Notes: a model not told the origin generated them from the sequence alone. A stretch of 31,861 nucleotides of DNA from an uncultured Gammaproteobacteria bacterium (GCA_964364695.1 CAYIMZ010000001.1:1-31861); one strand, 5' to 3'. Shown: positions 7,720 through 16,752, counted from the stretch's first letter. Numbers and translations are program-made.

Positions 7720-10700
7720 ATGCGATTCCTTTCCGGAAACAAGCCATATCTGATTCCTTTCTCAATCGCGATTGTATCGTTTTTGGCGGTTTTTGGGGTT
7801 ATTTCGCAGGCAAACAATGATATCCTGGTTTTGGGCCAGCTGTGGAAAACAGGACTTCCCACCTGGCAGAGCTCCATTTCAGTTGAACCTGGACAGGAGT
7901 TCAAGATTACAAGTTTTGCCGGAAACTACTCCGCAGAGGGTGTTGCGGTAACCAACGCCCGCATGGTTGATGAACTGCCGCAGTATACGTCATACGTGGC
8001 AGGCTCCGCATTCCAGATTCTTGATAACTCTGGCACCTGGCAGCCTCTGGGCGATGATGGCGCCACGCCGTTCGACGGCGCAGGCCTCGTCGTAACCGCA
8101 GACGGGACGCTGTCCGCGCTTGAGTTCGCCAATTACAAATACACGGTAAAGGTTGATGATTTTTTGCCGGCCGGCGCGGCCCAGCTTTCCTGGGGCGGTC
8201 CGGTTTTGCATTTTACAGATGCGTCCGGCAGCCAGACCAAGAGCACTATACACAGCACGAGCATCGCAGTCATCAATCTGCCGGCCATCTCATCTTTTTC
8301 CGTCAACGCGAACATCTACAAGCTGGGTGATGCCATCACCGCGAGCGCAACAGGGGATGCGGGCAAGATCAGCCACGTTGAAATCGGCTCAATTTCTTTC
8401 AACCTTGGAGGCAGCGGACCAAACTATTCCGGAACGTATGCCGTGCAGGCGGGAGACAGCGTCACCGGAATCCCGCGCGTGTTTTTTGACAATGGTTCAG
8501 GAACAGGATCATACCGAGATGCCGCATCATCGGTTGTTATTGACGGGGTCGTTCCGCCTGCTCCGTCTAATTTGGCGGCGAGCGTAAACTCCGGCACATT
8601 GGTGGCGACGTTGACCTGGGACGCCTCCAGCCCGGAAACAGATGTTACGCAGTACAACATCTACTCGGACAACGGATCAGGAACCATTGATTACAATACC
8701 CCGTTTGCCACGGTTGCGGCTAACGCGAGCGCTTCATATTCCTATGATACCGCGGCGCTTACGGCTGACTCTTTGTACAAGTTCGTGGTGCGCTCGCAGG
8801 ACGCGGCCGGCAACATTGAGCAGAATACGAGCGCCGCAAGCGCGGCAACGGACTTTACCGCGCCCGCGCCGCCGGACTCTTTGTCCCGGCCCACCACGTC
8901 CACGGATACCGTGGTCAAGTTCGGGGCGGCAAACCCATTGCAGTTTACCTGGGCATCCTCGCCATCCGCTGATGTGGCGCGCTACCGCGTGGAGGTGGAC
9001 GATAATTCCGACTTCAGCTCCATAATCGCATCCTTGGAAACCGCGAATGCGGTTCCAACGCTTTCCGCGACTTCAGCCCAAGTAACGCTTCCGGACGGCT
9101 CGTACTCCTGGCGCGTCCGTGCGATTGATGACGCTGAAAATGTTTCAACGCCCCAGACTGCTCCGAATAATGCCTTTGAAATTGACACCGCGAACCCTAA
9201 CTCCATCACGTTTGGCGCTCCGGCTTCAGGCAACCACATTGCGGGCAACTTTATGGCAACCGGAACCGCATCAGACGCGGGCACACACATGAATGTGAGC
9301 GGCTCAACCAACGGGCTCGCAAAGGTTGAGGTGTTTTTGCAGGATTTTACGGCCAATCCAAAGCTGTACTGGAACGGTTCGGCCTGGGTGGCCACGGTCA
9401 CCTGGATTACCGCGTCCACCGCGGATAATTTCGCACACTGGAGCTACAACTTCACGCCGACCATCACAGACGGCAACGCGTACTTTAGCGGAAGCCGCGT
9501 TACGGACCAGGCAGGAAACACTCTGGACAGCGCCCTGGTTTCGCTTACGGGCAACACGTCAACCCCGAACGTGAATATCACTGCTCCTGCCAACGGCTCG
9601 TACCAGGCAGGCACTGTTGCTGTGGCTGGCACGTCAAGCGATCCGGGCGGCACAACCGTCTCTGATGTGTCTGTTTCCATCCAGCGGAGTTTAGATTCCC
9701 AGTATTGGAACGGTTCAGCCTGGGTTGGCGCAATTGCCTGGAACACGGCATCAACGAGCGACAGCTTTGCAAACTGGACGTATAACTTTACTCCGGATTT
9801 CTCTGCTGCCGAAGGCACGGTATATACCATTACTGCCCGCGCAACGGACGGCGTGTTTGGCACGCCGAACATTGGCACTTCTGCGGCAATAACCACCATC
9901 AAGGATACCACTGCCCCGACAGTTGCCATTACGAGTCCGTTGGCCGCAAACTCTCCGTTCAGCGCAGCCGCGTGGGATGGGGCCAACCCGATTAGCGGAA
10001 CCGCGTCAGACGCGCTTGCCGGCGTTGCTTCGGTGCAGGTAGCTATCCAGGATTCAGGCGGAAACTACTGGAACGGAGCAGCGTGGGCAGCGGGCGCAAC
10101 CTGGCTTAGCGCCACTTCATTGGATGGATTTGCAACTTGGAAGTATATCAATGCGGGTTCTGATTTCATTCCGAATAAAGATGATTCATTTACCGTATAC
10201 GCGCGCGCAACGGACAATGGCATTGATACGCCGAACACCAGCGCTCCGGCGAGCCAGGCCGTGACCTACGATACCACTGCGCCGGTGGTTGCGAACGCGG
10301 TGGTCACGAACTCAACCGTAAGCAACATCACCACCTTTGTCAAAAACGGGGATGTGTTCATCTTGTCCGCGGACATCACTGATTTGCTGCAGGCTGGCAT
10401 GACTGTCGCGAGCATTACCGCGGACATTTCCGCAATCACCGGAAACGGCGGCGATACTGCCGTGGCGCCGACATCTTACAATACTACGACCGGGGAAGCG
10501 GTCTGGAACTTTGCCACTGCCGCAGGCACCGGAAACGGGAACCTTACAGTGAGCATTACGGCAACTGATCCGGCGGGCAATGCCGCGCTTTTCACGAACA
10601 ACGCCATCATAGTCGCGGACAACACAGCTCCGGCGGTTCCCGCCGCAACCCTTACTGTCCCTTCGGCCGCAGGAATCGCGTGGGCCGGAGGCTCAAGCCA

Positions 10701-15642: not shown

Positions 15643-16752
15643 ATGCAGCTTTTCGCGCACACCAAAAAGCATGCGAAGAAGATCGCCGGCATCGCGGTAC
15701 TCGCGGTAGCGCTGTTCGCGCTCATTCACCGCACGAGCATCACTGCCAACCGTTTGCCGCTTGAGGTGCGGCAGTTGGTGCGCAACGCGTCCGCCCGCGA
15801 AATTGAGTGGCAGATCGCCACCACTGCCCAGCCGGGCGATGTGCTTGAGCACTTTGTGCTCGTCCGCCTCGCGGCTGACTATCCCGAACCGGTCAAAGAC
15901 ATCCGCATTACGGCCCAGACGAGCAATGCTGATGCGTACCGCGAAGGCTCGTTTGCAAGCCGCGTGCTCGGCGCAACCGGGGGCAGCGTGTTTGAAAAGG
16001 GGATTTCGGTTGCCGAGCTCCATCCGGGAGAGTTCGTTGACCTGTCGTGGCAGACCAGCGTCACCGAGAATACCTCATTTGCAAAAGACGAGGCTCCGCT
16101 CCTTGCGAGCGTGGTCACCATTGGGGCGAATGATTTTTCAAAGCTGGTGAGCCGGACTGTTGCGAGCCTGTTCTCTACGCTTGAACGCGCGAACGTGTCG
16201 CTTTCGGCTGATACGTTCTACGCTCCCCGGGCGTACGGCATGAACCCGCGCTCCGCGTACGAGGATTTGGGGACTGGCGTGCTCATTGCCGGGGAAGACC
16301 TTTCCGGCGTAACGAAGCTTGCCATTTCCGGAACCGACAAAGCGCTCGTGTGGCGGCTTATTTCCAACGAGCTCCTTGAGGCGGGCATTCCTGCGGGTTT
16401 GCTGCCGGGGCAGTACTCGGTTGCTTTGTACGATACCGATAACCGCGTTATTCCGAACACGCTCTCCTTTGACATCCTGCCCTCTTCCGGCCGCGCAGTG
16501 GTGGTTCGCGCAACGCCGAGCCTGGTCAAATCCGGCAGCAAACGCACAGTTGTGCTGCAGGGCATACATTTGGACGAAGACCTCCAGCTCCTGTTGAGCA
16601 AGGACGGTTCCGCCCGAACGTATGCTTTGGAAAACTCCAAGCAGATTAACGAGCGCGTGATCTCTGCGGAGATTCCTGGTACTCTTACTCAAGGCACCTA
16701 CACCATTCTCGTGGGTGATACGGCGCAGGAGGCGCACATAACCGTCAACTAA
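15643..16752 (+). CDS. Membrane-anchored/secreted protein with a DUF11-like domain and two IPT/TIG-like domains
   Basis: N-terminal hydrophobic segment; AQPGDVLEHFVLV; PRAYGMNP...VLIAGEDLSG; RATPSLV...VVLQGIHL. Confidence 0.65.
   Translation: MQLFAHTKKHAKKIAGIAVLAVALFALIHRTSITANRLPLEVRQLVRNASAREIEWQIATTAQPGDVLEHFVLVRLAADYPEPVKDIRITAQTSNADAYREGSFASRVLGATGGSVFEKGISVAELHPGEFVDLSWQTSVTENTSFAKDEAPLLASVVTIGANDFSKLVSRTVASLFSTLERANVSLSADTFYAPRAYGMNPRSAYEDLGTGVLIAGEDLSGVTKLAISGTDKALVWRLISNELLEAGIPAGLLPGQYSVALYDTDNRVIPNTLSFDILPSSGRAVVVRATPSLVKSGSKRTVVLQGIHLDEDLQLLLSKDGSARTYALENSKQINERVISAEIPGTLTQGTYTILVGDTAQEAHITVN

Follow-up and report, generated by a model that had tools for sequence, protein, structure and literature searches.

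What kind of surface structure might be specified by a short run of genes, two of which share a domain, one of which encodes a chaperone and one of which encodes a protein with a donor-like strand and no acceptor domain? The window considered here, by which is meant the whole of a 31,861-nucleotide stretch of DNA (GCA_964364695.1 CAYIMZ010000001.1:1-31861), carries on its + strand six co-directional genes, and their translations indicate that all the products, of 1502, 319, 383, 284, 369 and 1053 amino acids (aa), are exported. As argued below, the block probably encodes a pilus whose subunits are joined by donor-strand exchange. Its main parts are a secreted giant that is a candidate tip adhesin (1502 aa, 7720..12228), a major pilin candidate (319 aa, 12488..13447), a membrane-anchored chaperone (383 aa, 13624..14775) and a secreted protein that is a candidate terminator or adaptor with a donor strand only (284 aa, 14784..15638). 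A first-pass annotation had read the sequence as an usher-less fibre of this sort, and the motifs on which it drew, namely the C-terminal strands, LKMSV and LTMSL, VPVTATVVP and VAVTAAVP, are all present in the translations at their places. The names of homologues put the host in the Parcubacteria group of the Patescibacteria. Its assembly (733 kb, 126 contigs, 86.6% complete), to which genome-wide absences refer, holds one pilin gene and one chaperone gene. It yielded no Pfam match to sortase, usher (PF00577) or PapD_N (PF00345), which extends to the genome the lack of usher and sortase earlier remarked on for the window. There was likewise no match to WxL (PF13731), DUF3324 (PF11797) or SCPU (PF05229), PF11797 being unmatched genome-wide even at E up to 10, and none of the surface proteins of the locus has a C-terminal LPxTG signal.

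The 319-aa protein consists of a signal peptide (residues 1-26), an immunoglobulin (Ig)-like N-domain (27-143), a linker and a C-domain (159-319) with phenylalanine, F319, as the last residue. Within the linker is VPVTATVVP (residues 150-158; 12935..12961, + strand), the putative donor strand. In the AlphaFold2 (AF2) model, with a predicted local distance difference test (pLDDT) value of 77, beta domains at 30-143 and 160-317 flank a stretch, 144-159, that includes VPVTATVVP and is not beta-paired. The best PDB matches of that model by Foldseek are a CfaB-CfaB donor-strand fusion (E 5e-7) and CsuC-CsuE, the relevant pilins being those of the class 5 pilus CFA/I of enterotoxigenic Escherichia coli (ETEC) and of the Csu pilus of Acinetobacter. 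For the C-domain, Foldseek and VIA gave matches to CfaB, CsuE, CsuA/B and the PapG pilin domain; the alignment to CsuA/B covers its residues 15-155, so that 1-14 at the N-terminus of that chain are left out. The WxL chain of 9i25 is absent among the structural matches shown for the pilin model, and no Pam entry is among the matches of the PDB search with the pilin. In the Atlas, a 380-aa Saccharimonadota cluster matches the C-domain of the pilin with a TM-score of 0.77, and the nearest named clusters by language-model features are WxL for 79 of 100 (score 0.88), which is to be taken as a lead only.

Neither Pfam nor NCBIfam has a model that matches the pilin, its 22 close relatives or 143 wider relatives. 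PF13731 in particular is matched by none of these relatives; SCPU gave a weak match in two of the 143 (E 0.009). The family is nevertheless a large one, in that a profile of linker plus C-domain matches at least 1049 clusters of a 50%-identity library at E<=1e-3, and 206 at E<=1e-10. Among the 143 relatives, positions conserved in at least 90% are V150, A154, V156 and P158 in the linker and G177, L179, T195, N196, G200, I228, A304, Y307 and F319 in the C-domain; the N-domain has none. Exactly terminal phenylalanine is found in 136 of 144, and the pilin domain is C-terminal in nearly all relatives listed. What precedes the linker varies, being nothing, about 30 low-complexity residues or an Ig domain, and because of this variation the linker strand is seen to go with the C-domain module and not with the N-domain. 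In the minimal homologue P0161 (190 aa) the signal peptide is followed by ANPESVTVSATV, which puts the linker strand at the mature N-terminus. The thought that the conserved strand might instead be the last strand of the N-terminal Ig domain was rejected, as relatives keep the strand without any N-domain.

The 1502-aa giant, in which Pfam finds fn3, Big_13 and other Ig-like domains, has the C-terminus GDYSGTLEFIVIPEY, identical at 7 of 15 residues to that of the 319-aa protein, GDYEDTLTFTLTPTF. The last domains also start in similar ways, with ...WIDQLKMSV in the giant and ...VPILTMSL in the pilin. Is this likeness beyond chance? When the C-termini of 14 giants, drawn from loci both syntenic and sampled, were made into a profile and this was compared by hhalign with the profile of the pilin-family C-domain, the probability was 98.9% (E 2.5e-17, 146 columns), and the proposal of a shared C-domain is borne out to that extent. 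With pairwise BLASTP the two C-domains gave E 4.8, which is not significant, and the pilin alignment, when set by hhalign against just the one tip sequence, reached a probability of 23%, which is too weak. The profile match opens at FWIDQLKMSV in the tip and tV.PtLTfsL in the pilin, i.e., immediately past the pilin linker. A regular expression for the donor motif has no match anywhere in the 1502-aa protein nor in orthologous giants. That the giant has the C-domain and not the donor strand, as first supposed, agrees with both results. When a strict form of the expression was applied to the seven surface proteins of the window, its matches were in the 319-aa and 284-aa proteins alone, apart from a false one within a signal peptide.

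The pilin-like acceptor domain of the giant can be placed at about residues 1367-1502 (11818..12225, + strand), without a donor or linker strand, and as judged from its sequence the protein is built as a tip subunit would be, with an acceptor and no donor. Directly upstream of the pilin gene, four other loci (L002, L004, L009 and L010) encode orthologous giants of 1497-3058 aa, and in a further one, L006, the giant runs off the contig end. Among 20 sampled loci, eight have giants that end in the pilin-type C-terminal motif. Because tip proteins carry the domain without the strand, the pilin C-domain needs no strand in cis. The Atlas structure matches divide along the same boundary of the pilin query: those to small pilin-like clusters start at 145-146 (two imply a later start by their aligned length), and those to large leucine-rich-repeat (LRR)/DUF285 Saccharimonadota proteins start at 153-155.

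The 383-aa protein belongs to the DUF916/WxLIP chaperone family. It has a signal peptide, two beta-sandwiches and a C-terminal transmembrane (TM) helix (14614..14676, + strand), the last recognised both from hydrophobic sequence and from the long helix, 331-374, that follows the two sandwich domains in an AF2 model of pLDDT 93.9. The single sequence reaches 24.3 bits against PF06030 (DUF916/WxLIP_PGBD), a little short of the 27.3-bit cut-off, and 48 of 61 aligned homologues match that family, with a best E of 3e-10. The best PDB sequence match of the family profile is EfmWxLIP1 of Enterococcus faecium (9i25_C, 9i1y_A; E 0.003). Foldseek, too, places first 9i25_C, the E. faecium WxLIP bound to a long WxL (E 3e-12), and then CfaA and CsuC. 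The fold of the second domain aligns with WxLIP despite the absence of PF11797. With this, the description of a DUF916-like protein with a C-terminal TM helix, lying between the pilin and 284-aa genes, can be kept. At the junction of the two domains is VGVLLLVRV (residues 158-166; 14095..14121, + strand), a strand in the model, with G159, L161 and L163 each kept in at least 90% of the 61 homologues. We infer that it is a candidate for the complementing strand, as a counterpart of the G1 strand in chaperones of chaperone-usher (CU) systems. The donor strand of the Enterococcus chaperone ElrE sits at the corresponding position, CU chaperones too have their complementing strand at such a junction, and CsuC and CfaA are among the ElrE hits in the same preprint (Sleutel et al., 10.64898/2026.10.17.759780).

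The gene directly after that for the chaperone encodes the 284-aa protein, with an Ig-like N-domain, the strand VAVTAAVP (within G-V-A-V-T-A-A-V-P; residues 168-175, 15285..15308, + strand) and a small Ig-like C-domain. It has a strand of the same kind as the pilin and, as had been noticed, no pilin C-domain, and it is also without TM helix, LPxTG or dockerin. The pilin alignment found no match to it by hhalign past the signal peptide. A homologue search with the 284-aa protein returned only relatives of 49-80% identity and identical architecture, and shorter forms came to light via synteny. Its counterparts directly after the chaperone gene are of 282-284 aa in three loci (L002, L004, L006) and of 147-148 aa in two (L009, L034), the short forms having a signal peptide, a strand (ATVSAIV or VSVSAIV), the same small C-domain and little else. 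Post-chaperone proteins with a donor-like strand right past the signal peptide are encoded also in L008, L017, L019 and L031. In L033 the protein in that position is of 888 aa, with INVTAIVPP near its N-terminus and a C-terminal TM helix, and is thus similar to PamR of the Pam pili considered below. By its sequence features, then, a donor-only class encoded after the chaperone is a recurrent one. The first-pass view of the 284-aa protein as a cap or base is only partly supported: the recurrence of the strand after the chaperone in other loci speaks for it, and against it is the want of any anchor, in membrane or wall, in the protein itself.

The L033 locus deserves a comment of its own. Its three genes (3986-8676) are minimal, for a 190-aa pilin, a 321-aa PF06030-positive chaperone and the 888-aa protein with strand and TM helix, and it is the clearest bridge between the layout of WxL clusters and the family of the candidate phyla radiation (CPR). 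Another observation on post-chaperone proteins is a dockerin-like C-terminus (DG.VNL.DFSI..F.WTG) in L016, L019, L022, L023 and L025. Of these only the L019 protein has a clear donor-like strand, with weaker ones in L016 and L022-L023. Such termini, together with the dockerin-like repeats of a lipoprotein encoded in the window (see below), hint that the fibre base may be tied to the cell by dockerin.

How widely are these genes kept together? Relatives at 42-74% pilin identity retain most of the block, in the order giant, pilin, chaperone, 282-284 aa protein, protein of about 370 aa, protein of about 860-1070 aa, ABC ATPase, ABC-2 permease and GT2. In a sample of 301 Patescibacteria genomes that spans the phylum (the tally includes one unpublished genome, G154, on which nothing else said here depends), the chaperone profile is matched in 152, and in 125 of 248 genera. 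Co-occurrence of the genes in other genomes had been named as a point to check, and in all 20 sampled Patescibacteria chaperone loci, taken one each from 20 genomes, a pilin-like gene adjoins that for the chaperone, as recognised by hidden Markov model in 16 and by the C-terminal motif in four. Some features of the wider set are of interest in themselves. In many genomes (loci L013-L032) two chaperone paralogues flank one or two pilins. Several of the chaperone matches, from a six-frame search, hold a single in-frame TAA, TGA or TAG; such stops may reflect frame boundaries or, in some lineages, alternative genetic codes. In L004 (11063-11760) two small genes lie between those for pilin and chaperone, and are absent from the window; their products, of 108 and 115 aa, have no signal peptide and no Pfam match.

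The genes on either side have their own pertinence. Upstream of the tip gene is that for a 664-aa lipoprotein (5519..7513, + strand), with lipobox LLGC and two near-identical dockerin-like repeats, DGNGVVDFDDFF, and with no Pfam match. In L002 and L004 the gene directly upstream of that for the tip encodes a protein of the same size, so that the upstream lipoprotein is retained there; in L006 and L007 the contig ends at that point. The lipoprotein is possibly a member of the pilus system, as an accessory or anchoring factor. Downstream of the 284-aa gene is that for the 369-aa protein (15643..16752, + strand), which has an N-terminal TM segment, a DUF11-like domain and two IPT/TIG-like domains, and whose counterparts come after the donor-only gene in L002, L004, L006, L009 and L034. 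Our best guess is that it may be the membrane anchor of the fibre base. Next is the gene for the secreted multi-Ig protein of 1053 aa (16759..19920, + strand), with four C-terminal repeats each of roughly 50 aa. Proteins of 859-1070 aa are in the same position in L002, L004 and L006, and the L009 counterpart bears SLH and PG_binding_1, which suggests a wall-binding role for the protein at this position in the block. The series of surface-protein genes is continued without a break (19917-23142) by those for an ABC ATPase, an ABC-2 permease and a 502-aa GT2, an order kept in L002, L004 and L006 and not in the distant L009. These genes could serve to make or export a wall polymer or a fibre glycan. 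A modification on Ser356 of PamA has been reported for Pam pili (10.64898/2026.03.03.709456).

There are also possible signals for expression, all on the + strand. By a consensus scan, promoter-like sequences lie upstream of the tip gene (TTGACA-18-TAAACT, 7605..7634; 10/12, a pattern match only), upstream of the pilin gene (TTAACA-18-TATAAT, 12308..12337; 11/12, the best of the region) and ahead of the chaperone gene (TTGCCA-17-TATAGT with an upstream TG, 13563..13591; 10/12). RNA folding places four stacked stem-loops directly 3′ of the pilin stop (13444..13546); the minimum free energy for 13440-13560 is -60.3 kcal/mol, with z of -7.4 against shuffled sequences, and there is no U-tract. The stem-loops are likely to be an mRNA stabiliser or attenuator. 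Together with the promoter sites, they fit with production of the major subunit in excess.

Two preprints of 2026 have already described the mechanism to which all this points, and the present locus is a variant and not a new system. One deals with the Pam pili of the CPR bacterium Ca. Mycosynbacter amalyticus, for which PamA, PamB and PamE are pilins, PamC and PamD chaperones, PamT the tip and PamR the terminator (Troman et al., 10.64898/2026.03.03.709456, PMC13278184). Its cryo-EM revealed a linker strand being donated between pilins with an N-terminal domain, linker and C-terminal domain; the chaperones of the operon are PapD-like and bear a C-terminal TM helix, and there is no usher; the PamT tip is linker-less, and PamR has an N-terminal strand and a TM helix. 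Pam was found mainly in Saccharimonadia and Microgenomatia (10.64898/2026.03.03.709456). The other deals with the WxL/Elr pilus of Enterococcus faecalis and other Bacillota, where work on ElrD and ElrE by cryo-EM and biochemistry showed donor-strand exchange to be the means of polymerisation of WxL pilins, primed by the DUF916/DUF3324 membrane chaperone ElrE. In the model for it a large tip, ElrA, has a C-terminal WxL domain, ElrC and ElrD are WxL pilins and the base, ElrB, has LPxTG; the WxL/Elr system was reported as confined to Bacillota (10.64898/2026.10.17.759780). Neither preprint mentions the system of the other (10.64898/2026.03.03.709456, 10.64898/2026.10.17.759780).

The likeness to Pam begins with a host in the same superphylum (CPR/Patescibacteria) and extends to pilins with N-domain, linker and C-domain, the latter two the most conserved, to a PapD/FimC-like two-domain chaperone with C-terminal TM helix, to a tip with the acceptor domain and no linker, and to the lack of an usher or trans-envelope machine. 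There are differences. Here there is one pilin and one chaperone, whereas Pam has three pilins and two chaperones; the tip is a multi-domain giant, whereas PamT is single-domain; and the 284-aa protein, with an internal strand and no TM helix, departs from PamR in both respects. The genome is of the Parcubacteria group, in contrast to the mainly Saccharimonadia and Microgenomatia hosts of Pam, and genes for an ABC-2 exporter and a GT2 accompany the block, whereas Pam is linked to ATP synthase genes. With WxL/Elr are shared a chaperone related to WxLIP/DUF916 in sequence and structure and with a C-terminal TM helix, a large adhesin with a C-terminal acceptor domain and no donor strand, and a small donor-only protein encoded at the locus. 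The terminal-strand motif of the pilin, Y-x-x-T-L-T-F-T-L, is one that we take to resemble the distal WxL motif. Unlike WxL/Elr, however, the window has no PF13731 or PF11797 matches and no Trp-x-Leu motifs; an extra Ig domain precedes its donor strand, which is internal and of the form V-x-V-x-A-x-V-x-P, whereas that of Elr is [S/T]-x-[G/A]-x-[V/I]-x-F; there is neither an LPxTG protein nor a sortase match, whereas the ElrB base has LPxTG; and the host is a Patescibacterium, not one of the Bacillota. As to the archaic (Csu) and alternate (CFA/I) CU pili, there is likeness in the structural matches of the pilin to CfaB and CsuE and of the chaperone to CfaA and CsuC, though these come after WxLIP. 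The differences from them are that here there is no outer membrane, no usher and no PapD_N or SCPU match, and that the chaperone is anchored in the membrane.

How might such a fibre be built? All components would be exported by Sec. The 383-aa chaperone, which its C-terminal helix retains in the membrane, would bind newly exported subunits, inserting VGVLLLVRV into the open groove of the pilin-like C-domain of a subunit and reading the conserved aromatic residue at the C-terminus. Because its acceptor domain lacks a donor strand, the 1502-aa giant could only start a fibre, and would come to be its distal tip adhesin. The 319-aa pilin, which may be transcribed from its own strong promoter, would follow, with its V-x-V-T-A-x-V-x-P strand entering the groove of the subunit ahead and displacing the chaperone, after which its own groove would take the next pilin, while its N-terminal Ig domain would decorate and stiffen the linear fibre as in PamA and PamB. 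Incorporation of the 284-aa protein would stop growth, because it has the strand without an acceptor domain, and the base might then be held on the cell, perhaps by the 369-aa protein. In brief, the locus probably encodes a chaperone-assembled, usher-less and sortase-less pilus of the Pam type, with a chaperone that is related to the WxL/Elr chaperones of Bacillota. The usher-less donor-strand logic first put forward is supported and agrees with both preprints; we infer every binding and strand-exchange step for the locus itself.

Several considerations weigh on the other side. The case for polymerisation at this locus comes from genes and models, and the comparison with Pam draws on the published descriptions of PamA, PamB, PamC and PamD. 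The family profile does align the pilin linker to the N-terminal NITVTASVDP of CfaB, the G-x-Y-x-x terminal strand to that of CfaB and, in addition, the linker to the strand copy appended to the CfaE-CfaB fusion 3f83, but none of these is significant (E 0.11-0.88 for the CfaB donor strand). The strand of the 284-aa protein is no more conserved than the rest of the protein in its close family, and as that protein has neither the TM helix of PamR nor the LPxTG of ElrB, termination and anchoring follow neither published model. A complex prediction for two copies of the mature 319-aa pilin, with alignment, scored 0.12 against a mark of 0.42 and is used neither way.

The points about the 284-aa protein bring to the fore the view that the fibre is chaperone-assembled as described, but that this protein is a minor adaptor or an unrelated Ig protein, with anchorage via the chaperone, the 369-aa or the 1053-aa protein. 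Its want of TM helix, LPxTG and dockerin, and a strand that is not specially conserved, would be natural then, as would the conservation downstream of a TM-anchored 369-aa protein and a large, possibly wall-associated one; and CU and Elr work has a single chaperone remaining at the base of growing polymers. We think this rather unlikely nonetheless, given that a donor-like strand after the signal peptide is encoded repeatedly after the chaperone (L008, L009, L019, L031, L033, L034) and that the 147-148-aa counterparts are little beyond strand and small C-domain.

Could there be no fibre at all? The older reading of Csc/WxL clusters would have a non-polymeric surface complex, with monomers on the envelope held by the DUF916-like protein and the strand acting in cis, as the first strand of the C-domain or as an interdomain linker. 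That is improbable in our estimation. Tip proteins have the C-domain without the strand, which the monomer model of the pilin leaves unpaired; for pilin and chaperone alike, the nearest relatives with a solved structure are donor-strand systems, and cryo-EM has shown Pam and Elr to be donor-strand filaments. A chaperone-free matrix fibre akin to TasA/camelysin or to archaeal bundling pili, with the DUF916-like protein for wall or host binding (as proposed in PMC10599100), is very hard to credit, as such matches are no better than those to CU pilins, adjacency of pilin and chaperone is nearly universal, the best structural relatives of the chaperone are WxL-bound WxLIP and CU chaperones, and the block has no gene for a signal peptidase of the SipW type.

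If a donor-strand pilus of the Pam type is what the locus encodes, what follows? The kinship of its chaperone with DUF916/WxLIP proteins of Enterococcus and Lactobacillus joins two systems that were published separately in 2026. One may go further, and with somewhat less than even confidence suppose both that Pam and WxL/Elr are branches of one ancient DUF916-chaperone pilus system that works without an outer membrane and that the Parcubacteria variant has a third way of anchoring, in which a donor-only Ig protein docks non-covalently on the 369-aa TIG protein or on the dockerin lipoprotein. The first part, if true, would go against both preprints, each of which claims that its system is restricted to one phylum; the second, if true, would replace the TM helix of the terminator (PamR) or the sortase linkage (ElrB). 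Any new biology that this variant might hold would lie in the anchoring of its base.

For annotation, it is useful that about half of the Patescibacteria genomes sampled have a member of the chaperone family and that Pfam offers no model for the partner pilin. Patescibacteria are for the most part episymbionts that have not been cultured, with a way of life in which attachment to host cells is central. To the Saccharimonadia examples the locus adds a probable donor-strand pilus from the Parcubacteria group, and the 1502-aa tip adhesin is a candidate for the protein by which the host cell would be recognised.

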